From: Escherichia phage CMSTMSU | DNA length: 64,000 nt | Reading direction: 5' to 3' (one strand) | Sequence record: MH494197.1 | Shown here: piece by piece, positions 1-64,000 of the stretch | Numbering within the stretch: position 1 is the stretch's first letter | Layout of the letters: each line of letters starts with the position of its first letter | The notes under the pieces: generated by a model | Seen by the model: the letters and a program-made list of their open reading frames with translations, nothing else | What the model was told of the DNA's origin: nothing | Database searches by the model: none | Made by a program: the position numbers and the translations under genes

Positions 1-9
1 AACTGTACT

Positions 10-132
10 TTAATGGGTCCACTGTAATTGAGATTCTTCTAGGAACTTGATACATCTGAAATAATCTTTCAAGGAAAGAAATTTAACTACTGACATATCC
101 TGAACAATACTATGCTGAACTTCAACTTTCAT
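10..132 (-). CDS. small hypothetical protein (40 aa)
   Basis: ATG with AAGGAG Shine-Dalgarno about 6 nt upstream; downstream of rnlA on same strand; no recognisable motif. Confidence 0.3.
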   Translation of the reverse strand: MKVEVQHSIVQDMSVVKFLSLKDYFRCIKFLEESQLQWTH

Positions 133-141
133 ATGAACTCC

Positions 142-395
142 TTATAGTGGGTCGAATTTATTTTCACGTTTTGATGTATAGCGAGTTACATCATGTATTC
201 TCGGCTTAACACCTTTTGGTTTCCTTTTCTTCTTGTATTCAGTACTACTACACCCGAAAGTATTCTCGATTCGTTTCTTACTAATCTTCACACCTTTCTT
301 AGAGCGTTTGTGCTGTAATTCATCGATTTCTTCTTGTATTTTCCTGAATTCTGTCGGAGAAAGGGAACCGTCATTTTATACTTAGGTTTAGCCAT
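142..395 (-). CDS. lysine-rich basic small protein, frame apparently interrupted
   Basis: ATG (MAKPKYK...) with AGGAG SD, continues in another frame (...SKKGVKISKKRIENTF...KKKRKPKGVKPR...) to a stop near 142. Confidence 0.25.
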
Positions 396-414
396 CACTT
401 CTCCTTGTGCTAGG

Positions 415-1566
415 CTAGATAGTACTAAAATCCTTTAGTACAATTTTCATGTACTTAATAAGAGTCTCTTTGTAATCGACTTTCTTATTGTTGTACATTG
501 CAAAGGCCAAGCCCTGACGATTCAGTTCATTAGTTAAACACTCCTGAACCTTCTTAGCGAATTCCTTTCGCTCCAAGTGCTTGTGTTCCTTGACGAAGCT
601 TTCAACTTCATCTTGTAAAGCATTATAGCACGAAAAGACTAGTTGTTCCATTCTTAATATCTTTTGGGTAGCATATTCGTCAGTACTGAACAACTGTTTT
701 AAATCATCACTCGAACCATTTAATACAGCTTCATATAAATGGGAATCGATTATAATACTGTCTTTCGTTAAATGCAAAGAACAATACCAGTCGGTTTTGA
801 TTTTGCACATTGTACCATTATTTAGGATGCACACAAAACCTTCAATGTCAAGCATTTTCTTAACTTCTTCAACACTTTCTTTGAATGTAGCACGAACAGG
901 GAAAGTGTAATGAATATCTTTACCTGTCATGTTAGTACTGTACTGTGCAAGGCATGGGAACTTATTACGTAATGCAGAACCACATAATAGTTCACCACTC
1001 TTGCGATGGCGAACGTTTAGTACAAATATTTGTTCAACCCGGTATGGTAATACAATACGGTACTCTGGACTTGTATACTCCAGATTAACAGTATAGCCCA
1101 AACGGTCTGCTTCGTCAATGTATTGATACAAATTTTGGTTCTCATTGAGAAGACGAGTACTGTTAATCGCATGGTCTGAATACAATGCAGTATGTGATTT
1201 ACAACGAATTACACCATCATTATCACGGTAAGTACTGATTACTGAACCATCCAACTTAGGCATCACTACTGCAATGTCATCGAATGTGGTATCAGCAGGG
1301 AACATTGTAGTAGGATTTTCGTAAGCATTGAAGAACTTTTTCATAGTACGAGCAGCACAACGAATCATATCACCGTCTTCATCAATTTCCCACATAGAAC
1401 CACGGGTTTCTAATGCATTGGGTTGCATGAAATCGGTATATGATGCTAGACGATAACTGAATACACGATATGTTCCACCAGCAGGACTTTTATGATCCAC
1501 ATAAAAGAAAGCCTCACGAGTATTACATAAGTGCATTAAATCTTCATATATTTGTAAAAGGGTCAT
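415..1566 (-). CDS. rnlA: RNA ligase 1 (T4 Rnl1 family)
   Basis: 383 aa; N-terminal FFYVDHKSPAGGTYRVFSY and nucleotidyltransferase motif I PKLDGS align by eye with T4 Rnl1 (FFYSDDVSASGRTYRIFSY; KEDGSL with active-site Lys). Confidence 0.85.
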   Translation of the reverse strand: MTLLQIYEDLMHLCNTREAFFYVDHKSPAGGTYRVFSYRLASYTDFMQPNALETRGSMWEIDEDGDMIRCAARTMKKFFNAYENPTTMFPADTTFDDIAVVMPKLDGSVISTYRDNDGVIRCKSHTALYSDHAINSTRLLNENQNLYQYIDEADRLGYTVNLEYTSPEYRIVLPYRVEQIFVLNVRHRKSGELLCGSALRNKFPCLAQYSTNMTGKDIHYTFPVRATFKESVEEVKKMLDIEGFVCILNNGTMCKIKTDWYCSLHLTKDSIIIDSHLYEAVLNGSSDDLKQLFSTDEYATQKILRMEQLVFSCYNALQDEVESFVKEHKHLERKEFAKKVQECLTNELNRQGLAFAMYNNKKVDYKETLIKYMKIVLKDFSTI

Positions 1567-1871
1567 TTTATTACCTCTATATCTACATCTGTGCCATAGT
1601 AGGAAACGTAACCATTATCTGAATTACATTGAATTGATAACTCTGATTCATAGTATGTTACTTTGATCACTGTTAGAACTTTTTCATCAATTTTTCCCGT
1701 TAAATAATCCATTTCACGAACACGAACTTTGGTTCCTTTTGGGAGTTCTTGTGCAATTTTATTAACAAGTTCAAAAGCAGCTTCTTCAAGTGTGTGCAAC
1801 AATTGCAATCTATCTTGGATATTCATGTTATTTCCACCAAGTTGTATCACGACCACCAGACAAAGATTCAT
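1563..1871 (-). CDS. hypothetical protein
   Basis: track ORF; overlaps next ORF by 44 nt, may be the C-terminal part of a frame-shifted gene. Confidence 0.35.
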   Translation of the reverse strand: MNLCLVVVIQLGGNNMNIQDRLQLLHTLEEAAFELVNKIAQELPKGTKVRVREMDYLTGKIDEKVLTVIKVTYYESELSIQCNSDNGYVSYYGTDVDIEVIK

Positions 1872-2274
1872 TGTACTGATGCCTGAAATTAGTATTTGGA
1901 TTATTTGTCATTGTACTAATAAAATCAAATTTAACATTCTCTTGAATGTAATTAATAACATTATCTTTAAATTTAATAGTACTGAAATCTAAATCCAAAT
2001 GTTCATACAATACCGGATGACAAAACTCATGTGTACGCAACGATGGCATGGTATCCTTAATGTATTGCACAGTGTTAATCATTGCATTGTATTCAGGCAT
2101 AGCACGCATCATCATTAGCTGAAAGTGTTCTTCCTCTGACATTGACTCATCCAAATCAATAACGACTTCATCATTTTTAGAGTCATATACTTTAATGGAA
2201 CTCTTGGTTGGATCAAGCATAGCCCACTCTGGATACAGGCATGTTTTCCAAAAAGGATTATTGCACTGAAACAT
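1828..2274 (-). CDS. hypothetical protein with family-A-like motif (SEEEHFQLMMM) and an HEFCH pentapeptide
   Basis: track ORF 148 aa; motif read directly; HExxH alone is insufficient to call a metallopeptidase. Confidence 0.4.
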   Translation of the reverse strand: MFQCNNPFWKTCLYPEWAMLDPTKSSIKVYDSKNDEVVIDLDESMSEEEHFQLMMMRAMPEYNAMINTVQYIKDTMPSLRTHEFCHPVLYEHLDLDFSTIKFKDNVINYIQENVKFDFISTMTNNPNTNFRHQYNESLSGGRDTTWWK

Positions 2275-2518
2275 ACTAATTAGATTTTGATTTTTATCAA
2301 AATAGCAAACCCAAGATCCGAACTTGGCTGTACTTCACATACACAAATATCATAAGGAGTCTTCAGTACTGAATGAACCAACTACATTTGATATATGTGA
2401 ATATGGAGTTTCTCTTGATTTTAATTCAAAGGCTCTCTCCATACGATTAACCTGTGGTTGTAATGTAATTACACCCCTCAGTACATATAAAATTCTATCT
2501 AAATCTTTAATCAAAATT

Positions 2519-8311: not shown

Positions 8312-8760
8312 TTAAACAACTAGGGAATGGAGCACTGTCAGTCTTTTATCTGGTTCTTCAGGGATACCGAACTTTAAGCGACCTTTTATAAAACAAATAC
8401 AATCACAAACTTTCGCAGCATAATCCTGAAAGGCTATAGTATCAGTTCTTGATGGTACGAGAATCAGTACTGTAGCACCTTTGTTATATGCATCAACTGC
8501 CTTAGATAACCACGTTTTCAAATCACTGTACGGTGGGTTGAGCCACACGATATTGTTTCCCAGTCCTGTTCAAGTGAATTGTCTTCTGGTGTAAAGAACT
8601 TATCACACAATGCAGTTTCTTTGACACACGCTGCATCTAGTGTAAATTCCCAGAGTTCATCCAAATCTTCAAAGAAATCCTTTGGAGTAGTCCAGTTATC
8701 TTTTCCAGTACTGAAATGTACTGATTGTTTTTCTTCGAAGCATCCTTCTTCGACATACAT
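8312..8760 (-). CDS. Dam-like DNA N6-adenine methyltransferase (PF05869-like), frame-shifted
   Basis: WTTP, FTLDAAC, NPPYS, PSRTDT and KGRLKF motifs across overlapping ORFs 8518..8760 and 8312..8548; shift lies just before NPPY. Confidence 0.7.
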
Positions 8761-49161: not shown

Positions 49162-49164
49162 TAC

Positions 49165-49498: not shown

Positions 49499-49587
49499 TT
49501 TGAATCTCCTAACTTTGTGGGCCGTCGCACCATTGCCGCCCTACGAGATACATTATTGCAGTACTGATATACTTTGTCAATACTTTT

Positions 49588-50016: not shown

Positions 50017-50022
50017 TAGTTT

Positions 50023-50280: not shown

Positions 50281-50593
50281 TATGTTTCCCCTTGTAGTTA
50301 GTAAAGTTATTACATCAGTACTATCAAGCTATGTCAATAGTACTGAAATAAAACTTTTAGATTAGATTATTGAGGCCGTCAATGGTAGACTCACTTTCTT
50401 CTTTCTCCCATTGTCGGTAGTACTTCCATGCTTCATGATAGGTGGCGATCAGTTCATCTTTTGATCCGGTTACATGCCAGTACTGAATCACGGTGAGCGG
50501 TGTTATAGATAGAATCGAATGATTTCTTCTCTTCTGCCGTTAGCTACTTCCCGCATCAGTTCATCAAAGTTAGCCATTTTATTACTCCTTTTA

Positions 50594-50650
50594 GTGGGGA
50601 GGATATCTCCCTATGCAAAACATTATACTTTGTTTTAGTTATTATGCAAG
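50594..50650 (-). promoter_or_regulatory. PeSL-like cassette
   Basis: TTGCAT - 15 nt - TATAAT; hairpin GGGAG GATAT CTCCC. Confidence 0.5.
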
Positions 50651-50902
50651 TACTTTTTCATATAAACATTAAATTCTACACCGCCGTAACCTTCCACGAT
50701 GATATGTTTTGCGTTATCACGTTTGCACATAGTGAAACCATCGTTTACGTGTTTTGCATTTTCGGGCGACATCACCGATAGCGGCACATACGGCACTAAT
50801 AACAGTATTCCGCAAAGTACTGGTATCATTGGCGGTCATAGTAGTTTGCAGTACTACGTTGTCGTATACGTGTGCATTGATAGTGATTTCGATAGTGTTC
50901 AT
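50635..50902 (-). CDS. hypothetical small protein, frame-shifted
   Basis: ORFs 50717..50902 and 50635..50829 overlap in two frames and look like one gene. Confidence 0.35.
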
Positions 50903-50916
50903 GGTGTATCTCGACT

Positions 50917-50978
50917 GGCGGGAGAACTATTCCCCGCTCTATGTAAAACATTATACGTTAATCTAACTACAATGCAAG
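50917..50978 (-). promoter_or_regulatory. PeSL-like cassette
   Basis: TTGCAT - 16 nt - TATAAT; hairpin GCGGGAGAACTATTCCCCGC. Confidence 0.55.
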
Positions 50979-51233
50979 TACTTTTAAATTTTATTTCCGA
51001 TATAGTCCGGTCTATTCTTTTCGGTCATACGCTTTGCTAATGTTTGCATATGGCTTATTGCTTGTAGTGTATCCTCTTCCGGGATGAATCGAGATAATCA
51101 GGATCATTCTTCACCTTGCAATGATTATGATAGCGTAGTACTGCCAGTACTTTTTAACTTCTTCTACTGTCATAATAAGTACCCACTTCGTTAGCTTTCA
51201 GGTTAGTATCAATCATCAGTGGATTTTTGTAGT

Positions 51234-51440
51234 TCACAAAACGAGTAGTTTTCTCGATAGCGAATCCCATATAATCCAGCTTACTAACAGTACATTCATT
51301 CTTAAAACTTCTTTCGCTGCATCGATGGCTGATTGCATGGATAACCGACCATCTAAATTAATGTTTCCAAATGATCCACCAGCAGAAGTAGGATTACCGT
51401 TCATATCTTTAATGATCATAGTAGCGGAGTAGCTGGACAT
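51234..51440 (-). CDS. hypothetical small protein
   Basis: track ORF 68 aa; AAGGA SD; cassette immediately upstream. Confidence 0.45.
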   Translation of the reverse strand: MSSYSATMIIKDMNGNPTSAGGSFGNINLDGRLSMQSAIDAAKEVLRMNVLLVSWIIWDSLSRKLLVL

Positions 51441-51463
51441 AATTTTGTTTCCTTTTATTGGTG

Positions 51464-51520
51464 TGGGAGAACTATTCTCCCTTGATGTAAACTATTATAC
51501 AGTACTGATATACTTTGTCA
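51464..51520 (-). promoter_or_regulatory. PeSL-like cassette
   Basis: TTGACA - 16 nt - TATAAT; perfect hairpin GGGAGA ACTAT TCTCCC. Confidence 0.6.
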
Positions 51521-51559
51521 AATACTTTTATTCGCCCATATAGATTAGATTATCATCGC

Positions 51560-51930
51560 CTACATAGGATCGCAAACGTTGATTTCTTCGCAGTACTTCG
51601 TGAATACATCGCCATAGTGACCTAAACCACGATCCCAAAACCAGTTCCGTGACCTTCGCGGGTAAGGAACAGATCATGACCAGCTTGCTCATAACCGTAA
51701 TCAATAAACATACCGCGAACTACTTCCAGATCATTACCGTGTTTCTCAATGAAGCGAGAACATGCAATCACTGCCGCTTGATGGGCTTGCTCTGATAATT
51801 CATAATCTTCCGTAATCGCCGTTCTCATTGTGTACAGTACTGAATTGCATAGCTTCAATGTAAGCTACAACCATTGCAGCATGATTTTTATCGTTAGTGA
51901 TGTTCCGAGCGAGATTAGTAGTAGTAGACA
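51560..51930 (-). CDS. hypothetical protein, frame-shifted
   Basis: ATG MSTTTNLARN...; continues in two other frames through ...REGHGTGFWDRGLGHYGDVF... Confidence 0.35.
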
Positions 51931-51951
51931 TGATTTTATTCCTTTTAGTAT

Positions 51952-52009
51952 CGGGGAGAACTATTCTCCCTTGATGTAAACTATTATACAGTACTAATAT
52001 ACTTTGTCA
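51952..52009 (-). promoter_or_regulatory. PeSL-like cassette
   Basis: TTGACA - 16 nt - TATAAT; hairpin GGGGAGAACTATTCTCCC. Confidence 0.6.
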
Positions 52010-52254
52010 ATACTTAATTACGTTTAAAATGATATGTGCCTTTATCATCCTGTACGCCCCATACTGATTTACCATCAACACCAGTGAAGCCGGATTGTAA
52101 TTCAATATGGAAACCATTATTATCAACTACAAAAACTTTTTATTTTCATCCCGATAACATTGATATTCTGAATCAACATTAAAGGCCGCATCATTCAGAA
52201 GATTAGAAGCGTAAATGCAAGTCATTGTAGTCATGATTTTATTCCTTATTGCCG

Positions 52255-52308
52255 TGGAACCGTTCCTCTCGATATAAAACATTATACTTGATTCTAAGTA
52301 TAATGCAA
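52255..52308 (-). promoter_or_regulatory. PeSL-like cassette
   Basis: TTGCAT - 16 nt - TATAAT; hairpin GGAAC C GTTCC, stem sequence differs from other copies but pairing is kept. Confidence 0.55.
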
Positions 52309-52311
52309 GTA

Positions 52312-52446
52312 CTTTTTAAAATAGTTTTCAGTACTGAATACTTATATAATAGATACACTTCCGCACCCTATGGGTCAGTGAGTTATCTCTCAATGGATAT
52401 ATATAGCAAAGGACTGACCGAGTCAATCCCTTTTTAATCTTTTTAT
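52312..52446. repeat. ~130 bp repeated intergenic element, copy 2
   Basis: CGCACCCTATGGGTCAGTGAG...GGACTGACCGAGTCAATCCCTTTTTAATC. Confidence 0.6.
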
Positions 52447-52507
52447 CGTGTTACCTTACTTGCTGCCACATCACGCTTTTTATAGTACTGATTCCAGATA
52501 TTGCTGG

Positions 52508-52825
52508 TTAAACCGTAATCAAGTACTTTAATAAGTCCATTACGATCCCGCCGATATTCTGTTTTCTGATATCTCTTATCGTTAGTGTTGATAATGTATC
52601 ATCGACGTGTTGTAGTGCATCAGCAAAGCGGTGCTGGCGTTCAATGGCATTACGTTTAATATTGTACTTTAATTCATTGCACGCGTTTACGTGCTTTACA
52701 CTGCCTTTACTTGCAGTACTCAACCGATCCATAACGATAAACATATTATCAGGATCGCATAAATGCATATGCACCTTTGCAAAGTACTGTTTCAACTGAG
52801 GGCGGTCATAGTCTAAAAATTCCAT
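52508..52825 (-). CDS. hypothetical protein (105 aa)
   Basis: track ORF. Confidence 0.45.
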   Translation of the reverse strand: MEFLDYDRPQLKQYFAKVHMHLCDPDNMFIVMDRLSTASKGSVKHVNACNELKYNIKRNAIERQHRFADALQHVDDTLSTLTIRDIRKQNIGGIVMDLLKYLITV

Positions 52826-52891
52826 ACCTTACATTCAGTTTCATTTTGTTCGACACCCGCATCACAATTCGCGACCTTAATCACTAACCGA

Positions 52892-53080
52892 TCATTTAAA
52901 GCGAAAACTATACGGGAAGATCCGCCCGATGATCTCCAGTCCAGCTAACCGACAAGCTGAAAGGATCTCTTTGTTGGTTTCCATTTCTGACAGTGTACGG
53001 ATGAATTTAGTATAATTACGCATTGCATGTTCTCCTTGAGTTAATGAAACTATATTACAGTACTTTACTATCAATGGCAA
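52892..53080 (-). CDS. hypothetical small protein
   Basis: track ORF 62 aa. Confidence 0.35.
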   Translation of the reverse strand: MPLIVKYCNIVSLTQGEHAMRNYTKFIRTLSEMETNKEILSACRLAGLEIIGRIFPYSFRFK

Positions 53081-53296
53081 CTACTTTTTAACATTAACGG
53101 CGTGAATCACTTCCTTAGTGTTTTTAGTACTGAATACTTTCGCCGCTCCTTGTTCGACCGTGATACGATAGCGACCATTAACATCAACCATATTAATAAA
53201 GTCCGGCGTGCTGAATGGTGTTGTTTTGCATTTGAGTACTGTTAACAGTTCCACCAGCGATGTAGTTTCTTTGATACGTTTTTCTAAAGTAATCAT
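53081..53296 (-). CDS. hypothetical small protein
   Basis: track ORF 71 aa; promoter-like repeat upstream, also found before the next gene. Confidence 0.4.
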   Translation of the reverse strand: MITLEKRIKETTSLVELLTVLKCKTTPFSTPDFINMVDVNGRYRITVEQGAAKVFSTKNTKEVIHAVNVKK

Positions 53297-53434
53297 TTTG
53301 TTTCTCCCCGTGTTGGTATGTACATATAGTACTAAAACATTTGAGTACTGTCAATTAGATAATATTATATTTCTTAAAATAAAATGCGTCTTGTGTTGGT
53401 TGATACTCGATACCGTTACCGTTATTGACTTCAA

Positions 53435-53629
53435 CTAATAAACCTTTGTCAATAAGTTTTTAATAGTACGATACCCTTGTTGAAAATTGGTAAAATGTGA
53501 ATCATTACGAAAGGTATAACCGTGCTTAACTGCTTCATCAATAGTTTTCTTTTCGATTTTAGATAATTTCATTTTGTTTCTCCCGTGTTGGTATATGTAC
53601 ATAGTACTAAAACATTTGAGTACTGTCAA
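53435..53629 (-). CDS. hypothetical small protein
   Basis: track ORF; likely start at internal MKLSKIEKK with GGGAGA SD. Confidence 0.4.
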   Translation of the reverse strand: MTVLKCFSTMYIYQHGRNKMKLSKIEKKTIDEAVKHGYTFRNDSHFTNFQQGYRTIKNLLTKVY

Positions 53630-53890
53630 CGTGATATTAGTTTTATTTTCTTATTGTATTGTTGATGCTCATAAAGGTTTATCTTTCCTGTGTTCTCGAT
53701 TACTATCCTGTTGTTAGTGTCCACATCGATTACACGCAGTTTCCGTTGCTTAACTTCCGGGTAATAGGTTACCATTAATAAACTCATTAGCAAGCTGTAC
53801 GGCCTTTGTGATGATTCTCTTCGGTGCTTTATAGTGTACCCGTAAGATGTTATCTTTATATAGTTGAACCTTAATCATTTTGTTTGTCCT

Positions 53891-53916
53891 ATAAAAAGGC
53901 GGGAACTGATCCCGCC
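53891..53916 (-). terminator. rho-independent terminator (minus strand)
   Basis: stem GGCGGGA/TCCCGCC, loop ACTGA, followed by U-run in minus transcript. Confidence 0.6.
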
Positions 53917-54423
53917 GTGTTGTTAGTACTGCAAGTTATTAGATAACCGGCGGCGTTTACTGTATACTGTTACACGATTACCCTTACGGTCGTGTCGGAT
54001 CTCTTTCTGGTTGCGAATCAGTTCACTTGGACGCTTAAGGTTTGCCGTGATCCGCGTGAGTCCATGCATTGGCATTTACCTGTACTTTGATATCAGAACC
54101 AGCGATAAACTCATCTTGTGCGTCAGTATTGCCGCCAGCATATCCGCTCGTTTTAGTTCTGCTGCTGTTAGTACTGGCTCAGGTGAATTCACAATATCAG
54201 AGATCTTTGAACTGTACGGCCCAGCGTTGGCCTTTCGGTGCATCTTTGCCCATGTCTTTAAATGCTGCTCCTTCCTCGCGTGCAACAATACGGGCAGCTT
54301 CACGGGTAGCGTAGAATTTAGTAATCATGGTATACATCCTATTAGTTAAGTTAGTACTACAAGTTAGAGTCTATTATAAAGTACTATCTGGGCAATGTCA
54401 AATAGTACTTTAAATGGATTCTA

Positions 54424-54745
54424 TTACATGTCTTTCTTACGTTTTACATCGTGGTAGCGAACTGTTATTTCTTTGTTGATCTCTTCCTCGATGCGGTGAA
54501 TAACTTTTTCTTTCGGGTTGAAACCTATAACGGTTTCTTTAATGATCTCAAGCCCGTGTATTCGCCTTGTGTACCGTAACCGTATGTAAAGGTTTCGTGT
54601 CCCGTGTCTTCCAGCGGTCGCCAATTAACGCAGACACGTAGCAAGAGTGGTAAGTATTGCCGTGTGAATCAGTCCACCGATTAACGTTAATGTCAAAGGA
54701 GGTTACAATTTTCAATTCTACTTTCTGGGCAAGGATCATAGCCAT
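54424..54745 (-). CDS. hypothetical protein, frame-shifted
   Basis: MAMILAQKVELKIV...NVNRWTDSHGNTYHSCYVS; two overlapping track ORFs. Confidence 0.4.
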
Positions 54746-54764
54746 TTTATTTCTCTCTTTTAGT

Positions 54765-54825
54765 TAGGAGGAACCATTCCCTCACTTGATGTAAACTATT
54801 ATACAGTACTAAGATACTTTGTCAA
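54765..54825 (-). promoter_or_regulatory. PeSL-like cassette
   Basis: TTGACA - 16 nt - TATAAT; hairpin in 5' leader. Confidence 0.55.
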
Positions 54826-54843
54826 TACTTATTTTTGGAAAGT

Positions 54844-55008
54844 TTACGCATTAATTCTACGCTTTCTTGTGAACGTTTTGCTACCGGCAAGCTGCATGGG
54901 TAGTAAACATTTTGTATAGTCTGACGCTTTGCCACCGAACCGAGCGGCACGTTCACGGGCACTTGGAACTAATACTATTTCTTTCTTGCAGATAGTGCAC
55001 TTAGCCAT
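54844..55008 (-). CDS. small Cys-containing protein (54 aa)
   Basis: MAKCTICKKEIVLVPSARERAARFGGKASDY...; own cassette upstream. Confidence 0.4.
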   Translation of the reverse strand: MAKCTICKKEIVLVPSARERAARFGGKASDYTKCLLPMQLAGSKTFTRKRRINA

Positions 55009-55027
55009 TTTATTTCTCTCTCTTTGT

Positions 55028-55089
55028 TAGAGGGGAACCGTTTCCTCACTCGATGTAAACTATTATACAGTACTAAGATACTTTGTCAA
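55028..55089 (-). promoter_or_regulatory. PeSL-like cassette
   Basis: TTGACA - 16 nt - TATAAT; hairpin GGAA ACGG TTCC. Confidence 0.55.
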
Positions 55090-55093
55090 TACT

Positions 55094-55366
55094 TAATTAT
55101 TGTAAATGTCGTGAATAGTGATAAAGTTTTTACGACCGTAAACCTGCAAATCAATATCAATGTAGTGCTTATCTAGTACATCCTCGACGCTTAACGCGGT
55201 GTCGTGGATATCTTCGTAGAATTGAGTATCTACAATCTTGCTTAAGTCATCCGGCGTTAACTCATCGTTAAGCAGTTGAACCGCCGGATATCTGCTTCAC
55301 GTTTCCAGTCTTCCAGTTAGTAGTCAGTACTTGTTCGATTTCGTTAGCTGTCAGTAGAATCCGCAT
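55094..55366 (-). CDS. hypothetical protein, frame-shifted
   Basis: MRILLTANEIEQVL... then ...LLNDELTPDDLSKIVDTQFYEDIHD... in another frame. Confidence 0.35.
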
Positions 55367-55547
55367 TTTTATGTTTCCTTATCAGTGGTTGATGTAAGTA
55401 TTATACTCGTTTACTTTCTATTGTCAAACTATTTTATCAGGGAGTTTTTCGTATGTCTTACTCGACTACTTAACGGGGTTACTTGTTTCGTTCCCCGTCC
55501 TGATGTAAAACATTATACTTGATTCTAAGTACAATGCAAGTACTTTT

Positions 55548-55670
55548 TAAAAATAGTTTTCAGTACTAGCCACCAGCAAACAATAGATACATTTATGCAC
55601 CCTGTGGGCTGATTTGTTTCTATGCGTATATAATAGCAAAGGACTGAATCCCTTATTCAATTATTTTTAA
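55548..55670. repeat. ~130 bp repeated intergenic element, copy 3
   Basis: ATGCACCCTGTGGGCTGA...TATAATAGCAAAGGACTGAATCCC. Confidence 0.55.
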
Positions 55671-55816
55671 ACTTCTTTCGGGTTGCGATAGGTGATAGCG
55701 TTCGGGTACATTTGTTTAATGTTATTCCATGCCCGGTTGACATTGTAACCACTTGATCGAATCAGTTGGTTACTACCGACACCTTGAAACACTACTTCGA
55801 ATAAGAATTCTTTCAT
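55668..55816 (-). CDS. small hypothetical protein (49 aa)
   Basis: MKEFLFEVVFQGVGSNQLIRSSGYNVNRAW... Confidence 0.3.
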
Positions 55817-56286
55817 GCTTTCACCTCGCGATCTGCTTTACCTTTACGCCGACATTACTAATTGTTCGCGTTGCCATAAGTCGAGTGATACAAAAGTTTT
55901 GCGGTATCACTTTTAGGATACTCGCCATTAGTACCTAACCGATAAAACAGATCTTTCAGTACTGATAATTCTACTTGGATCATTATACTTTCTCTTTGTT
56001 GGGAGGGAACTATTCTTCCGATATAAAACATTATACACTTTATTCAGTACAAGTACTTTTAATCTTTCAGCCAATGATCCTGAATGAATTTTTCACCGGA
56101 ACCTTGCTGCATTGATTGTAACAGACGTTCACGATGAGCGGCGGCGAATTGCTCAGTACTATGCGTTACACCGGTTGATATCTGGATTCACCATTGGGGC
56201 TGATGTATTGTACATCCCACGGTTTTTCGTTAGTATCAGACCATTTACGAACGATTAGTTGACCTTGCATTTTTCTTTCTCTTAGT

Positions 56287-56346
56287 GGGGAGAATCATTT
56301 CTCCCCTTCATGTAACTTATTATACAGTACTAGATTATCTTGTCAA
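56287..56346 (-). promoter_or_regulatory. PeSL-like cassette
   Basis: TTGACA - 16 nt - TATAAT; perfect 8 bp hairpin GGGGAGAA TCAT TTCTCCCC. Confidence 0.6.
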
Positions 56347-56351
56347 TAGTT

Positions 56352-56636
56352 TTATTCACCTTGTTTGAATTTAGTTTTCTCCATTGATTCCATGATTGCA
56401 ACCAATACGCCGTGGATCTCGCTTAACGCGGAATCACTAAAAGCATTAATGAATAGTCGATCATTCTCGCGAATATTTTTAATGTACTTTTCAGCAGTAG
56501 TTGCGAATTCATTCAACGGTAGATCAAATGCTTTATCCCATGATGGATGGCGTAATTGTAACAGTACTGGATTATCACGATCACGGGAAAACGTACCAGT
56601 GATGAAACATACGCCCGAATACTTTCGAACTGGCAA
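56352..56636 (-). CDS. hypothetical protein (94 aa)
   Basis: track ORF. Confidence 0.45.
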   Translation of the reverse strand: MPVRKYSGVCFITGTFSRDRDNPVLLQLRHPSWDKAFDLPLNEFATTAEKYIKNIRENDRLFINAFSDSALSEIHGVLVAIMESMEKTKFKQGE

Positions 56637-56959
56637 CGGACTTCCTTTGTGATAGTAGTATGAATGTACATTTATTGTTATCCTCTATTAAATTAATATT
56701 ACAGTTTATGAATCAATTCTTTATCTAAGCGATAGCGTACATTATTAATAGTAACGGCATTGTTTTAATGCTACGCTGTACAGGTCCACCAGCAATAACA
56801 AATGTTGCTTTATTACCCCGAACAATGATAGCACTTCCGTGATTACCGAAATCATCTTGTACTAAAATACTTGATAAGTTTTCCATTTTATTTCTCTTAG
56901 TAGGGAAGATGTTTCCTTGATGTAAGTACTATAACAGTACTGAAAACTAATTGCAAGTA

Positions 56960-57313
56960 CTATGATAAAATCATGATAGGATATTCACTATCGATCAGTA
57001 CCTCGAATCCGAACCCTTCGTACCATTCTTTAAGATTAAAGGCGTTATCTTCTCCGTATCGCATTCTAAGATGATACAATCTGAATCATCAGCGGCATCG
57101 ATAAAGGCATTCATTAATTCGTTACCTTCACCATTGCCCCGACTATCAGGATCAACATAAAGAGAATCAATGAAAGCAACACGGTCATAATCAAGATCCG
57201 GTGCAATGATTCCACGTTTAACAAACCAGTACTGCAATTGTGCTACTTTGCTGTACCTGATAACCAGTGATCTCGCCATTGTCAGTAGTACGCGTGATAT
57301 GTTGTATTCCCAT
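56960..57313 (-). CDS. GNAT-family N-acetyltransferase-like small protein, frame-shifted twice
   Basis: acetyl-CoA-binding motif ...VDPDSRGNGEGNELMNAFIDAA... and C-terminal ...EWYEGFGFEVL... readable across three frames. Confidence 0.5.
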
Positions 57314-57962
57314 GATTTCTATCCTCAGTTAAGATATAAAACATTATACACTATCTTTCAGTACTGTCAATTACTTTTATCTCATAGATCTATGCCAACA
57401 ATTACGCGGATCTCTTTAAAAGTACTATCATGATCCTCCGGCAAGTAATACAATACATGCACCTATAACGGCCCGGCGTCGATTCTCAGGGATTTTACCG
57501 CCGCAGTCGAGGCAATGTACAGTGATTCTCTTTGTGCGTTAATTTGCTTTCTAGCGTGGTTAACGGCGGCCTGAATCACTGCGTTAATCTCGTCTTGTTC
57601 GGCCCCGTCTTTCGCGAATCCTACAGCCATTATTTTAACCTCATTATAAAAATACTATAGTACTGTAATGCTACAATAATACTACTAGTGCTAATCTTAT
57701 TCAAACCACATGATACTACATATCCACCAGCATTACCACGGATAGTAACGCCTTTGTACTGTCTATATAAATTCAACTGCGTATATTGCCTTTGATCAAG
57801 AATTGATCAGAATTATACGCCTTATGCTAAATTGATCCAGTACTTTTGATCATTTATTGATCGATGTTATATAGTTACATTTGTGCACCCTATGGGTTAG
57901 TGACGTTCTCGTCTTGATGTAAGTATTATGCCAGTACTGGAGGATATTGTCAATAGATTATT

Positions 57963-58160
57963 TTAATTTTTTCTATCATTAATTAATGCTTTCAGTACTA
58001 TACTAATAACTTGCAATGATTCATCAATGACAATGAAATTATTCTCTTTCATTAGATGATAGTTACCATTGATTGTATATTCTAACGAGTACTGTTTACG
58101 TTTAATTTTTGATAATGTTTCTATTTGTTTTTGTACTGATTTCATGCTAATCATTGTCAA
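57963..58160 (-). CDS. hypothetical small protein
   Basis: track ORF 65 aa. Confidence 0.35.
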   Translation of the reverse strand: MTMISMKSVQKQIETLSKIKRKQYSLEYTINGNYHLMKENNFIVIDESLQVISIVLKALINDRKN

Positions 58161-58983
58161 ACGTCCTGTAACGCATTCTAACGAGATAAACGGTTGAGTA
58201 CTGGCATTGTATAGGGTAATGATTAAAGCCCACCAGCGTTAACCAGTGGGCTATAATCTTACATCTTGCGGATAATCTTAACAGTATCTTTCACCGATTT
58301 ACCGTTTTGCTGACATTGCTCGATCATCGCGTATTGTTCTGCGGTCAGATCCTCGCCAGTTTTTGCCAGTACTGCGTCGATGAATGAATCCAGTGCGATC
58401 ATTTTGTTTCTCTCTTAGGTTAAGTTAACTACTGTTTATAAAACTTATTATACAGTACTATCAAACTATGTCAATAGTACTGGTAATATATTTTAGCGGT
58501 AGTCGTCGTATGCTTTATTCACGGCGAATATAACTTTCAAAGGCTTCGTCTACCGTTTCATACTCCCGAACATAATCACCATATGAAACTACATACATAC
58601 CTTTTGATCTTCAAACGTCATGATGATAGAATCCAGACCAACGATTTCAGTTTTTGCGATGATAGCCATTTTTAATTCCTTAGTAGTGTAGTTGATAAAA
58701 GTTATTATGTCAGTACTATCAAACTATGTCAATAGTACTGTGATAATATTTTAGTTAATGATAGTCAGTGTAAAATTGTAATCCCCTGCCCGTATAGTAC
58801 TTTATCGCCGAACGTTCCAACACGTTTCATATTGCAATAGATACCCATAACACTTTTACATCTTTGATATTCCGAACGCCAGTAATATCCTTGTTTAAAT
58901 GATCGTGATCAGAAAATAAAACTTGTTTTGCATTTTTCAGTACAGTGCAGATATTAGCCATTTTGTTTTCTCTTCTGTTAGTG

Positions 58984-59041
58984 GGGAGAAGTTTTTCTCC
59001 CTTGATGTAAACTATTATACAGTACTATAATCTATTGTCAA
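58984..59041 (-). promoter_or_regulatory. PeSL-like cassette
   Basis: TTGACA - 16 nt - TATAAT; hairpin GGGAGA AGTTTT TCTCCC. Confidence 0.6.
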
Positions 59042-59414
59042 ACTATTTTTTATATTATTCGAAATCTTCTGGACCGGACTGATAATCATCTTCACCGTAT
59101 GCACTTTCTAACCGCTCGCCAGTGCAATCATCAGTTAGTGAGTCATCCTCATAGTTCACGTCTACGCCAGTGATGTAAAACTGGCTATCGTCTGGATCAT
59201 TGAAATTAATTTTCTGGATGTTTACAATAACTGTATTGATGCCGTGACACCGCCATCAGCCGTTACAAAGTACTGATATTTTTCACAACCGCCTGAATTG
59301 AAACCGTAATTAATTTCGGCCCGACCATCACTTAAACGCAGTGTCTGAGCGATGATTTCATTTTCAAAGTTAGATTGAGCAATTGCAATAGTCATGATTT
59401 GTTTCTTATTATCA

Positions 59415-59471
59415 GGGAAACCGTTTCCCTTTCGATGTAAAACATTATACGCTTATCAGGAAGTAATGCAA
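59415..59471 (-). promoter_or_regulatory. PeSL-like cassette
   Basis: TTGCAT - 16 nt - TATAAT; hairpin GGGAAA CCG TTTCCC. Confidence 0.55.
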
Positions 59472-59957
59472 GTACTATTTCACGTTAATTTCAAAGTACT
59501 GCTCTTTGATGTTTTCCTGTTGGTAAATCTCGTTTAATGCTTTAAGATCTAAAACCTGTTTACCTGCTGCCTGAATATACTTTTAAGAGTCGCTAACAGC
59601 TTCTCAGGCGTGTTTGTAGTCTTACGTGTTGGGATCTTATCGTGCCCCATAGCGTAGTACTGCTTACGTGCTATAGTACTGATAACACTGCGGTACGGTT
59701 CCATGATCAGCTTGTCTGTATTCGTCGCTATCCCCAAACTTCATACCGTGGATCGCAAAGGTCATCATCATGCGGTCGTTATCGCGGATATTGTGGGGCA
59801 GTCGGCAAGCTCGCGAGTCAGTGACATAGTGATCCCCACGTCGCCACCCAGCGGTAAAGGTCGGGCGATAAAGAAACCGTTAGGGAATACTTTCAGGAAG
59901 TTTTCTTGAACTGCTGCGACGAATTCGATGCTATTCATAATTCATTTCCTTAATTAG

Positions 59958-60015
59958 TGGGGAAGTTGTTTCCTCTTGATGTAAAACATTATACGCCTAT
60001 TGAGATAGTTTGCAA
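59958..60015 (-). promoter_or_regulatory. PeSL-like cassette
   Basis: TTGCAA - 16 nt - TATAAT; hairpin GGAA GTTGT TTCC. Confidence 0.5.
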
Positions 60016-60032
60016 GTACTTTCTACAAATAC

Positions 60033-60160
60033 TTTTAAAATAGTTTTCAGTACTCAATACTCATATAATAGATACACTTATGCACCCTGTGGGCTAGTGA
60101 GCTATCTCTCAATGAATATATAATAGCAAAATGGCTGACCGAGTCAACCACTTTTTCATT
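60033..60160. repeat. ~130 bp repeated intergenic element, copy 4
   Basis: ATGCACCCTGTGGGCTAGTGAGCTATCTCTCAATGAATATATAATAGCAAAATGGCTGACCGAGTCAACC. Confidence 0.6.
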
Positions 60161-60271
60161 TATTTTAGCTTTTAGAATCGCCGCCTTTCGCGTCATGCCT
60201 TGCTTGATGTATTCTGTACTTTCGCTTTACGTGCATTCGCTTTATTTGCTTTCGTAAACGCCGAACAACTT

Positions 60272-60580
60272 TTATAGTTTAAACCTGTTGGATTCATTTA
60301 AATCACCATAAAGAATAGATAGGTTACTAACAACGCCGCGATCAATGCACCGACCGAACTGTAATAAGCTAATGATCTCATTTTTAGCCTGAAAATAATG
60401 TTTAATTTGAGCGGCGGTCAGTGCACAATTACGCAGGAAGTTTTCTGTATAACTTTTGCGAGTACTGAAAGAGAATTGACCTTTGCTGCTGCCGATAGTA
60501 ACATCAAACCGAGCGTTGTATTGTTTCATTTTGTTTCTCCTGTTATTGGGGAGAATCATTTCTCCCTTCATGTAAAACAT
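60272..60580 (-). CDS. hypothetical protein
   Basis: track ORF 102 aa; probable start at internal MKQYNARFDV. Confidence 0.4.
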   Translation of the reverse strand: MFYMKGEMILPNNRRNKMKQYNARFDVTIGSSKGQFSFSTRKSYTENFLRNCALTAAQIKHYFQAKNEIISLLQFGRCIDRGVVSNLSILYGDLNESNRFKL

Positions 60581-60605
60581 TATACAGTACTAAAACTAAT
60601 TGCAA
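60548..60605 (-). promoter_or_regulatory. PeSL-like cassette
   Basis: TTGCAA - 15 nt - TATAAT; hairpin GGGGAGAATCATTTCTCCC, identical to copy at 60771. Confidence 0.55.
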
Positions 60606-60770
60606 GTACTATTTTTAGATTTACGCAAACTTTCTACCATCTCAGGAGTAAGGTCTGCGGGTAGGAAACTACTTCATCAACGAAACGTAAAGGAATACCC
60701 CAGCGAAAGGTGAACGTGCTTTCTTAGTATTACTCTTTTTGATGCTTTCATTTCATATTCTTAATTAGTG

Positions 60771-60827
60771 GGGAGAATCATTTCTCCCTTCATGTAAAAC
60801 ATTATACGCGTTTAAAACTAATTGCAA
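60771..60827 (-). promoter_or_regulatory. PeSL-like cassette
   Basis: TTGCAA - 15 nt - TATAAT; hairpin GGGGAGAATCATTTCTCCC. Confidence 0.55.
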
Positions 60828-61691
60828 GTACTATTTGAAAGTAAATGCTCATACGCTACATTAACTACGTTTTCAATAACCGACTGTACAGAAAGATCCC
60901 CACTTCCGGCTATAGTAGAAATCGCTTACAGTAGTGTCATCGTATGCAAATACTTTACCGTGACTGCATCAATCACATACATATTAACCTTTAAGATGTC
61001 GATCTTATCCTGTACAGTAAGCATATTAATTAACCTTTTAAGTACTGACTTAAGTAATCTTGTTGATCTTCGGTGATTGCAGCCATCTTCCCTAGTACTG
61101 GATTAATGATATAATCCCTGTAACGTCCTGTAACGCATTCTCAGGCGGTTTAACGGCTGGGGTAGCCATAGCCATTGCCGACTTGTTCGACGCTGTAACG
61201 CTCATAAAGGCGGCATTCTTCCGGTGTTAACATAGCATCAATGCGTTTCATTGGTTTAATGATGCTTTCGATCTCATTCAGTACTTGATTAACGTTCATG
61301 GTATAATCCCAATATAAGCGGCCTAAATCGACCGCTAACGATGTTTTGATTAATAGGTGTATGGTTGACGTTCAAACAATGATTGCACGTTGTACGCCCC
61401 GCTTATGGGCTTTGCTGGTAAATCAATTTTATATTGTTCACGCTTAAAGATAATAAAACGGCAATTGTTTTAACATCAAAATTGATTGAACGTTCCGAGT
61501 TTACCATCGTGCACAAATACAAGATAACCGCTCGCTACTTGTTTTGTAGTACTGGTTGCAACCATAGACCGCCGAACATGTGTACCTGCGTCGATTAAAG
61601 TACTGATATTTTTCATTTTACTATCCTCTTAAGTTGATTTAATTTCTTTCCCTATGCAGACACTGTACCAAAGTATCTGCATAAAGTAAAG

Positions 61692-62013
61692 CTAATTAAA
61701 GATCTTTTTACGTTTTACATCCTGTACAGTACAATGCAACGGGATAGACAAATCATTGCACAAACGATAGAGGGAGGTTTCATCAGTATTAAGCCCGTCT
61801 ACTGATTCCTTTAAGAGAGATAACGCCGTTTGTTGGTATGCATCTTCATAGCCATAAGTAAATGATTCAACCGCCAGATCATTCAAGCCGTTATCCAGTT
61901 CGACGCTTACATGACAAGAATGATGTATTGCCATATGAATCAGACCAACGTTTACCGTCAACATTGATTGCACGGATTGCAGCCGAAACGGTGTTAATGA
62001 TAGTTTTAGCCAT
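61692..62013 (-). CDS. hypothetical protein, frame-shifted; paralog of 54424..54745
   Basis: MAKTIINTVSAAIRAINVDGKRWSDSYGN then ...HHSCHVSVELDNG...; shares RW-x-DS-x-GN-x-YHSC-x-VS with 54424..54745. Confidence 0.4.
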
Positions 62014-62263
62014 TTTAGTATTCCTTAAATTAATATGTGTCGTCTTGATAAAATCTATTATGCCAGTACTATCAAACTATGTCAATAGTACTGTGATAAT
62101 ATTTTTACTTACTTTTTGCTTTCTTTATTGCTTCCACCGGTCGGCCCATTCTTTACCCCATACTTGTAAATTATAATGGTACTGGCAAAGTGCAACGCCC
62201 CGCTTTAAACCAGTAATAGATTTTTACCACATTGACAAGTTTTCATTTTAGTTTCCTTGTAGT

Positions 62264-62321
62264 GGGAGAACCATTTTCCCCTTGATGTAATGTATTATAC
62301 TTTATTCGATTTACTTTGCAA
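62264..62321 (-). promoter_or_regulatory. PeSL-like cassette
   Basis: TTGCAA - 16 nt - TATAAT; hairpin GGGAGAACCATTTTCCC. Confidence 0.5.
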
Positions 62322-62338
62322 GTACTTTTTAATTTAAT

Positions 62339-62551
62339 TCATCCGTAAAGGATACGCTCAACGCCCAAATCAGTTAAACTAATCGACGGCACTTGATAGG
62401 TTTCAATGTATGCTACACTTGCCCACTGACCGAACTCATTAACGGCCGTATTCATTGCATTTTGCAATTCCACACCTTCCTTGTTGGTAATGACTGCAAC
62501 TACTTGTTCGTTGCCAGTAGTACCAGATACGCGAGTAATGATAATAGCCAT
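62339..62551 (-). CDS. hypothetical small protein
   Basis: track ORF 70 aa. Confidence 0.4.
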   Translation of the reverse strand: MAIIITRVSGTTGNEQVVAVITNKEGVELQNAMNTAVNEFGQWASVAYIETYQVPSISLTDLGVERILYG

Positions 62552-62986
62552 TTTTTAATTCCTATTCAGTAGTTGATGTATGTATTATGCCAGTACTTAA
62601 AACTATTGTCAAACTATTTTTAAAGTTTATCAATGATTGATGCCGTTTCATTGATAGTCTTGCCGTGTTTTGCACACGCGATAACTGCTTTAAATTCCTT
62701 TGATGACCAATCTTTCTTACTGCATACTGACATTACTTGTAAAGTAAAACAATCCAGTTCATAAGTATTCATCTTTATATCCTCAGTTAGTTAAGGTGTC
62801 TGCCTTGATGTAATTAATTATACGCTAATCTCTTAATCGTGCAAGTACTTTTATTACTTTTTGCAAAATACTTTAAACGCTCTCAATCGCATTACAACGA
62901 CCTTAACGCCACCAGCTAGGCAATGCATCAGATAATCAGTTTAAAGCGTTAGAATCGTTTCTAGGCGGTGCTGGTGGCGTAAACGA

Positions 62987-63015
62987 TAAAAAAAGCCCAC
63001 CGTTTAAGGTGGGCT
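62987..63015 (-). terminator. rho-independent terminator (minus strand)
   Basis: 8 bp GC-rich stem AGCCCACC/GGTGGGCT, loop GTTTAA, followed by 7 U in minus transcript; 13 nt downstream of stop at 63028. Confidence 0.7.
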
Positions 63016-63027
63016 AGTGATTCAGTT

Positions 63028-63406
63028 TTATGCTTCAACTTTGCGATGAGCTTCGATCCATTCCTCGCGAGTCATACCACTGGAGTTAATCGCGTCCAGT
63101 ACTACCGCAATGCAGTTACCACGCACCGGAATCAGATATTCTTCCCGTTGTACTACCGCTACGCGTTCCTGAATCCATTTTTGGCTTTTACTTCTGGCTT
63201 GTCTTCCCATACTTAACCGCCGTGGCTTTTGTGCCATCTCTGTAACTACTTCCAGATCCAACTACTGCCGCCTGAATACTTTCGATTGTTGCTTGTAGTT
63301 CTGCTTCACGGGCCGCCTTTGCCGCTTCAATTTCTGCCGCTTTATTTGCTTGTAGTTCTTTCGCAGTACTGTAAGCGATGTTAAAATTATTGCGTACCGC
63401 TTTCAT
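63028..63406 (-). CDS. hypothetical protein, frame-shifted
   Basis: overlapping ORFs 63188..63406 (Ala/Glu-rich, coiled-coil-like) and 63028..63261. Confidence 0.35.
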
Positions 63407-63690
63407 GGTATCGTTATCCAGTTCAGCCGGATCTCAGCCGCGACGTTAGTTTCATTTGCACCAGTGCTTTGATGAATGATTTTACATTAGCCATTTTATA
63501 AATCCTCAATTAAAGTTTAGTTTACGTTTATTAGTGTATCAAAGTTTTCTGACGTGTCCAGTTTTTCGTTCGACTTACTGGCGGTCTACTTAGTGCTCCC
63601 CGTCTTGATGTAATACATTCTACGCCTTTTTGCGGTAATGTCAACTACTTTCTTAAAACTATTTTCAAAGTATCTCAGTACTACGATACT

Positions 63691-63717
63691 ACAAAACAAA
63701 AAGCCCACCCGTGGGCT
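63691..63717 (-). terminator. rho-independent terminator (minus strand)
   Basis: stem AGCCCAC/GTGGGCT with U-rich tail in minus transcript. Confidence 0.55.
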
Positions 63718-64000
63718 GTATTAATCAGTAAGTAAAATATTAAACACTTTACCATTTAACGTTATTGGTGCACTGCTACCGTGCTCAAGATCCGTTAGTA
63801 TACCTGCAATCGCTTTATCATTGGCGACCTTTCCAGTGTCCAACAGTACGACAGTACTGATAAGATTAACGCTCGTTTCAATATCATAATGCACGGCGTT
63901 AAGGAGTTGTGTATACTGCTTTCGTTAAGTAAAACTATTCGTGCTGTCATGATGTACCCGTAGTATCTATCAACGGCAATTAATAACGCCGGAATGCGTT

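Follow-up and report, generated by a model that had tools for sequence, protein, structure and literature searches.

The only well-known iterated palindrome is HIP1 (GCGATCGC) of cyanobacterial chromosomes, which together with its alternates is described in two accounts (PMC5861425, PMC4390886) as short, hyper-abundant, present in every reading frame and in intergenic DNA, conserved by selection and distributed over whole clades. By the same accounts, HIP1 is conserved between genomes by selection and not neutrally replenished, and its function is still unresolved. Some three decades after the discovery of the motif, that function is elsewhere described as only starting to be elucidated. Here we analyse a word of similar behaviour in a bacteriophage, the hexamer palindrome AGTACT, in a stretch of 64,000 nucleotides of Escherichia phage CMSTMSU (MH494197.1), hereafter called the window, and in related Rak2-like jumbo phages. 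AGTACT behaves as a highly iterated palindrome (HIP) and has HIP1 as its nearest known analogue; it is not HIP1, and CGATCG has no copy in the phage genome. Whereas HIP1 belongs to cyanobacterial chromosomes, AGTACT is AT-rich and sits in a virulent, palindrome-purging phage with unmodified-looking DNA. Its excess is nine-fold as compared to the 15- to 300-fold given for HIP1. Moreover, no cognate methyltransferase is evident for the phage motif; two methyltransferases are encoded, and their distribution does not track it. Two features described below, an operator-like placement in promoters and zones with a variant on one strand, are absent from the abstracts of the two HIP1 accounts (PMC5861425, PMC4390886).

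The same six-base-pair core occurs in the binding site of the host protein SlmA (SlmA-binding site, SBS; GTGAGTACTCAC), likewise a palindrome, which is read by a dimeric helix-turn-helix protein and scattered over the chromosome instead of being restricted to promoters (PMC3020112). The flanks of the phage motif are the opposite of those of SBS (C and not a purine at -1, no GT at -3/-2), none of the phage sites fits the SBS rule, and the Escherichia coli chromosome holds about 50 SBS against 1008 AGTACT in the phage.

By megablast the window derives from a PBECO4/121Q-type E. coli jumbo myovirus (group of approximately 350-380 kb, genus Asteriusvirus, Rak2-like), and the record nearest to it is phage WPEC3 with about 98% identity. 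Almost all genes of the window are small, lie on the minus strand and have no known function. For genome counts the whole WPEC3 genome was assembled from nine pieces and its non-redundant length of 361.6 kb was used. The ends of WPEC3 form a direct terminal repeat of 22,503 bp, the right-hand copy of which the window enters at position 48,257. Aligned to WPEC3 312,584-376,583, the window shows small deletions, about 390 in number and 313 of them single-base, together with about 30 insertions, and its coverage by open reading frames (ORFs) is 78% as compared to 90% in the same WPEC3 region; it therefore looks like an error-prone, probably long-read, assembly in which many apparent frameshifts are probably artefacts. 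The motif counts are unaffected by these errors.

The AGTACT excess in the window and across the clade

AGTACT occurs 240 times in the window, whereas dinucleotide-preserving shuffles yield 17.7 +/- 4.2 copies (maximum 30; none of 100 shuffles reaches 240). It is the most over-represented hexamer (z = 53, observed/expected ratio (O/E) 13.6), and the words ranked next are its own extensions. The consensus octamer CAGTACTG, itself a palindrome, has 44 copies where 0.7 are expected. In a fourth-order Markov model AGTAC and GTACT are already accounted for, and yet its prediction for AGTACT is no higher than 199 copies. Inside genes, 168 sites are seen as compared to 55 +/- 6 after shuffling of synonymous codons within genes and 21 +/- 4 after shuffling of whole codons, so that both amino-acid sequence and codon choice are bent toward AGTACT. 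Within ORFs the word occupies all three codon phases (63/44/43). Codon usage or dipeptides (Ser-Thr, Val-Leu, x-Tyr) as the cause are ruled out by this use of every phase, by the shuffles and by the diversity of the encoded peptides. Repeated paralog and promoter contexts were likewise rejected as the source; they are a minor contributor, since similarity to the flanks of another site is seen at only 39 of the 240 sites, and the remaining 201, with independent flanks, still amount to about 11 times the expectation. The signal acts at the level of DNA, because all codon phases are used, genes of both orientations are affected and non-coding DNA is denser in sites than coding DNA.

A sequence-only reading of the window had estimated by eye an excess of an order of magnitude or more, lying only in part in the paralog motifs. 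The estimate withstands the Markov, codon-shuffle and paralog controls, and O/E stays well away from 1 (13.6 in the window, 9 in the genome). Its spacing of one site per 80-150 bp was too dense, AGTACT in fact occurring every 267 bp on average (every 207 bp if the gaps are left out), or every 178 bp when TGTACT is included. That reading had counted TGTACT as part of the motif; its 119 copies in the window are exactly what an order-3 Markov model predicts, and they are concentrated in the first of two gaps, where they replace AGTACT (47 copies against 0 of AGTACA). Nor is the motif spread over the whole window, which has no site in 32,048-40,837 (8.8 kb) or 42,882-48,382 (5.5 kb). The window is accordingly divided as follows.

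1-32047, no strand assigned: AGTACT-rich early-gene region with small minus-strand genes and paralog arrays; 128 sites, 4.0/kb, in all codon phases and diverse contexts.
32048-40837, minus strand: zone 1, free of AGTACT; its plus strand has 0 AGTACT, 0 AGTACA and 47 TGTACT, with GTAC still at 10/kb.
40838-42881, no strand assigned: dense island between the zones; 15 AGTACT and 36 GTAC in 2.1 kb.
42882-48256, no strand assigned: zone 2, free of AGTACT; GTAC at 2.75/kb (background), 9 AGTACA against 2 TGTACT on the plus strand; ends exactly at the boundary of the terminal repeat.
48257-64000, no strand assigned: part of the 22.5-kb direct terminal repeat; 97 AGTACT, 6.2/kb.

In the non-redundant WPEC3 genome AGTACT occurs 1008 times against 112 expected (O/E 9) and is the sole strongly enriched hexamer palindrome, the runner-up reaching an O/E of 1.56. 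Density goes with expression class: about 6.7/kb in the terminal repeat (151 sites in 22.6 kb), about 4/kb in the early region and 2-2.5/kb in late and structural genes. For replication and structural genes of either orientation together the range is 2-3/kb. Non-coding DNA holds 3.7-13.7 sites per kb, the upper value being that of the terminal repeat of WPEC3; approximately 80% of the sites, some 800, lie inside genes. Host DNA has about ten times fewer AGTACT than phage DNA.

For comparison across the clade, homologous core regions of about 42 kb each were used (26 kb for XaC1), so that most genomes were sampled as fragments. AGTACT ranks first among hexamers in each of the nine Rak2-like samples, drawn from five or more genus-level groups, and core-region O/E is 5.5-8.3 in PBECO4, RaK2, GAP32, CBB, fHe-Yen9-04, Munch, XbC2 and the distant XaC1. 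Enrichment is lacking in the samples of XacN1 (0 against 5.2 expected) and PA5oct (1 against 8.8) and in T2 (3 against 4.5, O/E 0.66). Top rank in the nine Rak2-like samples, and not in PA5oct, XacN1 or T2, implies a factor specific to the clade. The sample of Escherichia phage muut, an rV5-like coliphage (positions 32,734-63,708), has no AGTACT at all against 9.7 expected, and beside it the Rak2-like excess is all the more remarkable. The word may thus be avoided by some E. coli phages at least, though T2 is without clear avoidance.

Individual sites are also retained. Against PBECO4 (about 85% identity) 75% of the AGTACT sites are kept as compared to 51% for the average hexamer, which places the word first among 95 frequent hexamers. 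Against WPEC3 (98%) only 6 substitutions fall within AGTACT where about 26 are expected (ratio 0.24), while positions 1-3 bp outside the site are near background. Some sites share an alignment column in orthologous proteins of eight out of eight genomes, for instance in DNA polymerase and gp46; many others are lineage-specific. From retention against both relatives and the eight-genome columns, individual sites and overall density are both maintained, and AGTACT sites are under purifying selection. The suggestion of the sequence-only reading that enrichment points to a function is supported by selection, on the substitution count, the retention and the nine samples; the mechanisms it offered are only partly supported, as set out below.

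In the literature on phages we found no published description of AGTACT or CAGTACTG, and the genome papers of CBB, Sharanji and fEgEco12 make no mention of such a motif. The usual avoidance of restriction sites is seen in the same genome, where 23 of the 64 hexamer palindromes (22 of 64 in the window) and GCGC have no copy, as against the O/E of 9 for AGTACT. The avoidance of palindromes by phages, noted in the sequence-only reading, is borne out and is extreme here. Phages normally lose palindromes under restriction pressure, yet AGTACT is raised nine-fold and maintained by selection throughout a clade of phages of about 350 kb, which implies a genome-wide DNA-reading system not previously recognised. 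Such a system could serve the control of early transcription, chromosome organisation or self-marking, in a group in which more than 80% of the genes are without known function. It is also tractable: the phages are virulent coliphages, the site is that of a commercial restriction enzyme (ScaI), the two site-free zones are internal negative controls, and a natural single-base variant exists (CAGTACAG). AGTACT may hence offer an experimental route into iterated palindromes generally.

Site symmetry, early promoters and AGTACT-free zones

Around the 1008 sites of WPEC3, flank information is confined to positions -1 and +1, where it is mirrored: C makes up 48% at -1 and G 44% at +1, and the disfavoured bases are G at -1 (7%) and C at +1 (10%). 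Correspondingly, the octamer CAGTACTG is found 223 times and GAGTACTC 4 times. Mirrored flanks point to double-stranded DNA recognised by a symmetric reader; in a region whose genes all have one orientation, a signal at the RNA level would have no need of them.

The part of the terminal repeat in the window, approximately 16 kb, contains 22 strong promoters of the sigma-70 type, all on the minus strand, and 11 of them agree with the consensus (TTGACA-N16/17-TATAAT) in all 12 positions. Downstream of most of the perfect-consensus promoters there is a conserved leader with a GGGAGAA...TTCTCCC inverted repeat. The sequence-only reading had noticed the motif in promoter spacers, and this is borne out in 12 of the 22, which read TTGACA-N9-AGTACT-G-TATAAT with the site at position +15 from the start of the -35 element. 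In four promoters AGTACT is fused to the -35 element (TTGACAGTACT), and several promoters carry a second AGTACT directly upstream, 22 bp from the first. The promoter features, all on the minus strand, are listed here.

49560, 51501, 51990, 54805, 55069, 56326, 57933, 58454, 58712, 59021, 62065 and 62592, minus strand: starts of the AGTACT sites with fixed spacer position, from the promoter alignment.
51494-51521, minus strand: the layout seen most often, TTGACA-N9-AGTACT-G-TATAAT, here with AGTACT at 51501-51506.
58447-58481, minus strand: promoter with two sites 22 bp apart, AGTACT-a-TTGACA-tagtttgat-AGTACT-g-TATAAT, the sites at 58476-58481 and 58454-58459.
58704-58739, 62057-62092 and 50310-50344, minus strand: further copies of this paired-site module.
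53326-53354, minus strand: promoter in which one site overlaps the -35 element (TTGACAGTACT) and another lies over the -10 region.

This placement is operator-like, in that a site of dyad symmetry overlaps core promoter elements at a fixed position. It resembles tetO/TetR and the lambda operators, where a dyad site also lies at or between the -35 and -10 elements, in fixed position and sometimes paired at about two helical turns. The likeness ends with the approximately 80% of AGTACT sites that are intragenic and far from promoters, and with the searches reported below, which yielded no repressor.

Of the two gaps, zone 1 is not naive DNA. Its coding minus strand reads (C)AGTACA(G), that is CAGTACAG, the usual octamer with one base changed. 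This variant has one orientation only, the pentamer GTACT being found 52 times on the plus strand and once on the minus strand. Variant sites are found in every codon phase, and the peptides they encode are diverse; of the 39 that align in PBECO4, 25 are retained and none is AGTACT. The strand skew does not begin abruptly and rises gradually over about 30 kb ahead of zone 1. The few sites of zone 2 have the opposite polarity. This zone coincides with a tandem array of paralogous genes, more than 20 in number and 70-80 codons long, which abuts the terminal repeat (42882-48256), and with a sharp shift in composition (AT skew -0.18 to -0.24, GC skew up to about 0).

In WPEC3 the zones are the two longest AGTACT gaps of the genome, 8.4 and 6.0 kb as compared to 2.3 kb for the next longest, and both gaps are present in PBECO4. 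CBB, which belongs to another genus, has no such AGTACT-free zones. This rules out the zones as an architecture of the whole clade; they are an elaboration of Asteriusvirus outside the core function. Judging by the zones, at least one reader may take in only a single strand, or a single half, of the site at once, and an intact palindrome may be detrimental there. Several known words have related properties. Chi, FtsK-orienting polar sequences (KOPS) and DNA uptake sequences are frequent, short, dispersed, selected and specific to lineages, and the zone 1 variant resembles a polar signal of this kind; those words are asymmetric and strand-skewed genome-wide, whereas AGTACT is a perfect palindrome, for which skew is impossible outside the zones. 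The evasion of the type III enzyme EcoP15I by T7 also involves an asymmetric word in strict single orientation. The word of zone 1, unlike that of T7, is enriched and not merely tolerated, and the remaining genome has the palindrome and hence both orientations. We know of no enzyme that recognises CAGTAC(A).

Candidate readers of the site and rival explanations

As a tentative reading, which we hold to be possible but short of probable, we propose that AGTACT, with CAGTACTG as the optimum, is the recognition site of a predicted clade-specific dimeric DNA-binding protein. Natural selection holds this highly iterated palindrome at about 3 sites per kb across the Rak2-like jumbo phages, and a homodimeric protein would bind double-stranded DNA by recognising both half-sites. 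At the strong early promoters the bound protein would compete with RNA polymerase, because the site adjoins the -10 or overlies the -35 element. In the terminal repeat this would result in a timed shut-off, possibly a gating, of early transcription. Via the approximately 800 intragenic sites the same protein would coat, organise or mark the whole phage chromosome. That such a protein reader exists, which protein it is and what its binding does are thus what we infer from the sites; the enrichment, selection, symmetry, clade distribution, promoter placement and site-free zones are observations. Among the mechanisms offered by the sequence-only reading, a dimeric DNA-binding protein fits best, by the mirror-symmetric flanks and the operator-like positions, and the part of that proposal which has not materialised is the protein itself.

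A number of results weigh against this proposal. An operator role leaves about 80% of the sites, those inside genes, unaccounted for. The promoter counts are not independent events, because the promoter cassettes are paralogous and related by duplication. As to short-range periodicity of spacing, pairs of AGTACT 14-26 bp apart show genome-wide only a mild excess (52 against 40 +/- 6). Zone 1 keeps a conserved half-mutated site in a single orientation, which a strand-specific reader fits better than a symmetric dimer. Searches for a protein were negative as well: the phage has no homologue of SlmA or TetR (best E = 0.24, to a DUF5856 protein), no helix-turn-helix protein was found, and a Pfam scan of 121 early-region ORFs revealed no DNA-binding domain. 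A conserved terminal-repeat protein of 203 amino acids with a weak match to PF25212 was considered and dropped, since it has 58%-identical homologues in phages of the rV5/phAPEC8 type, of which the sampled member, muut, is without AGTACT. Scans of the ten terminal-repeat proteins conserved between WPEC3 and CBB with Pfam and PHROGs revealed no DNA-binding domain and gave no annotation.

Among the alternatives, AGTACT could be the target of a phage-encoded DNA modification, by a methyltransferase or another base modifier, the modified sites serving as an epigenetic mark. The phage encodes a short C5-cytosine methyltransferase (PF00145, 286 amino acids) and a phage-type Dam (PF05869), and 1008 sites of the ScaI/Eco255I type in a palindrome-purging genome would be safer if protected, Eco255I being an E. 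coli isoschizomer of ScaI. An epigenetic role has been proposed for HIP1 together with its orphan methyltransferases, and HIP palindromes co-occur with cognate enzymes of this kind (PMC4390886). Both methyltransferase families are, however, widespread, with a close copy in only about 51-53 of 72 Rak2-like records, so that their distribution does not track the motif, and muut has a C5 enzyme of 50% identity together with its complete lack of AGTACT. There is no signature of deamination or of very short patch (VSP) repair, AGTATT/AATACT having an O/E of about 1, and the approximately 430 assembly indels of the window are not concentrated at AGTACT (ratio 0.8-1.1). The DNA of a 98%-identical relative was cut as predicted by ten restriction enzymes, ScaI not among them (PMC13070987), and is therefore not globally hypermodified. 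Finally, protection alone lifts negative selection and would not generate a nine-fold excess. A modification target, which the sequence-only reading had also put forward, thus finds no support in these comparisons and is in our judgement unlikely, if worth keeping in mind. We regard as similarly doubtful a self mark encoded in the sequence and read strand-wise by a translocating enzyme, such as a Chi-like helicase-nuclease, a primase or a packaging or segregation motor. The palindrome would put the signal on both strands, and the half-mutated sites of the zones would make it directional. This agrees with the 52:1 orientation of GTACT in zone 1, the opposite polarity of zone 2, the position of both zones on either side of a dense island near the terminal-repeat boundary and the gradual accumulation of strand skew over about 30 kb. 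It also agrees with the total absence of GCGC, a second signature with the same clade boundary which together with AGTACT would make phage and host DNA distinguishable without base modification, with phage DNA that appears unmodified, with the strong enrichment of host Chi in the terminal repeat and with the ten-fold scarcity of AGTACT in host DNA. Against it stand the lack of any known candidate enzyme, a zone 2 polarity based on about ten sites, some of them in paralogous contexts, and the finding of the zones in Asteriusvirus and not in CBB, which places them outside the clade-wide function. The known signals read on one strand, Chi-type, KOPS-type and primase sites, are moreover asymmetric, unlike AGTACT, and are not hexamer palindromes. 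A related idea, to which we give a small chance, is that Rak2-like phages tell their own DNA from that of the host by sequence alone and with no base modification, through a positive mark (about 1000 selected AGTACT with a predicted phage reader) and a negative mark (total exclusion of GCGC and exclusion of most GC-rich palindromes). If true, phage nucleases, silencers or organisers could treat the two chromosomes differently, and the AGTACT-free zones, with half-sites on one strand, would form a domain beside the terminal repeat that is exempted on purpose or directional.

A neutral by-product of biased mutation, repair, gene conversion or of codon and peptide usage is very unlikely. For HIP1, an origin in biased mismatch repair has been put forward (PMC4390886), and the paralog families of the phage carry a recurrent FQxST/FQY peptide able to encode CAGTAC or AGTACx. 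Yet the synonymous and whole-codon shuffles strip most of the excess (from 168 to 55 and 21), non-coding DNA is denser in sites than coding DNA, peptide contexts are diverse, and AGTACT is conserved above background at short as well as long divergence. A uniform repair bias is untenable because two zones have zero sites. No single-substitution neighbour of AGTACT is depleted, AGTATT/AATACT included, which rules out a VSP-like biased repair of deaminated sites. We consider it highly improbable, too, that AGTACT is where a conserved phage replication or topology enzyme prefers to act, for instance a T4-type topoisomerase II cutting A\|GTAC\|T with a 4-bp stagger. The phage does encode T4-type topoisomerase II subunits and a primase-helicase, and dyad symmetry around a central 4-bp GTAC fits the cleavage geometry of type IIA enzymes in general. 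T2, a relative of T4, is however not enriched (O/E 0.66), although T4-type phages including T2 presumably carry the same class of topoisomerase; in the literature we found no published site preference of the T4 enzyme, and the idea would leave both the promoter placement and the site-free zones unaccounted for. Barely credible is a capture of the host nucleoid-occlusion factor SlmA by phage DNA, by which division would be blocked during a long infection. SBS shares the AGTACT core (PMC3020112), and infection by the Asteriusvirus Sharanji gives filamented cells filled with phage DNA, with no division inhibitor known (PMC11895373). SlmA, on the other hand, requires G1, T2, a purine at position 3, A4 and G5 (PMC3020112), and GT[GA]AG[TC][AG]CT[CT]AC has no match in the window or the genome, even under a relaxed rule. 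Half-sites with SBS-type flanks number 20 and 11, fewer than the approximately 34 and 37 expected, and G at -1 is the most avoided base, with GAGTACTC at only 4 of the 1008 sites. Host SlmA sites are thereby ruled out by the flank rules; if anything, the phage avoids making them. Beyond the predicted dimeric protein and these alternatives, we reserve a minor but appreciable share of belief for an explanation outside all those considered.

Other word signatures and neighbouring genes

The hexamer palindromes missing from the phage are mostly GC-rich restriction sites (GGATCC, CTGCAG, CCATGG, GAGCTC, GTCGAC, GGTACC). GCGC is missing from the window, where 42 copies are expected, from the 361.6 kb of WPEC3, where about 190-220 are, and from each of the Rak2-like samples, as compared to 25-37 copies per 25-31 kb in PA5oct, XacN1, T2 and muut. 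Its absence thus has the same clade boundary as the AGTACT enrichment, and the two may belong to one system. Related jumbo phages have their own distinct word signatures, as judged from the sample of XacN1, with no GATC in 25 kb, and from an excess of CTGCAG in PA5oct. The latter was considered as an analogue of AGTACT and dismissed, since the excess is mild (14 against 2.8) and not comparable.

The most depleted hexamer genome-wide is TAAATA/TATTTA (O/E 0.3 in WPEC3), and TATAAATA has 0 copies in the window. A putative late promoter ATAAATA has been reported in CBB (PMC5259590), and the depletion is consistent with an avoidance of stray T4-type late promoters. In the core regions of most Rak2-like samples, CAGCAG/CTGCTG and CACCAG/CTGGTG are 4.5- to 7-fold over-represented; the first pair includes the recognition site of EcoP15I (CAGCAG), the second a part of Chi (CTGGTG).

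With about 0.2 copies expected, the window has ten of CCACCAGC, the complement of E. coli Chi, and nine of these lie in the terminal repeat.

1475, 49605, 49820, 51376, 53251, 55570, 56786, 57724, 58230 and 62909, no strand assigned: copies of CCACCAGC, from the window scan.

In WPEC3, where about 1 Chi is expected per strand, the minus strand has 24 and the plus strand 7, and ten of the minus-strand copies fall within the first 22 kb. Chi oriented in this way may protect the genome end against RecBCD.

The gene for the phage-type Dam (PF05869; window positions about 8315-8760, minus strand) is split in the window into two overlapping ORFs in different frames, while the WPEC3 copy is intact with 174 amino acids; the split is probably one of the assembly indels. 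Outside the window, on the plus strand of WPEC3 just inside the left terminal repeat (27,311-47,580), there are 17 tandem genes with RCC1 repeats ('regulator of chromosome condensation'). A conserved terminal-repeat protein of 84 amino acids (locus L009:6461-6712 in WPEC3; about 54.4-54.7 kb in the window) matches the ParE-like toxin domain PF24732 (E = 6e-11) and is also present in CBB with 43% identity.

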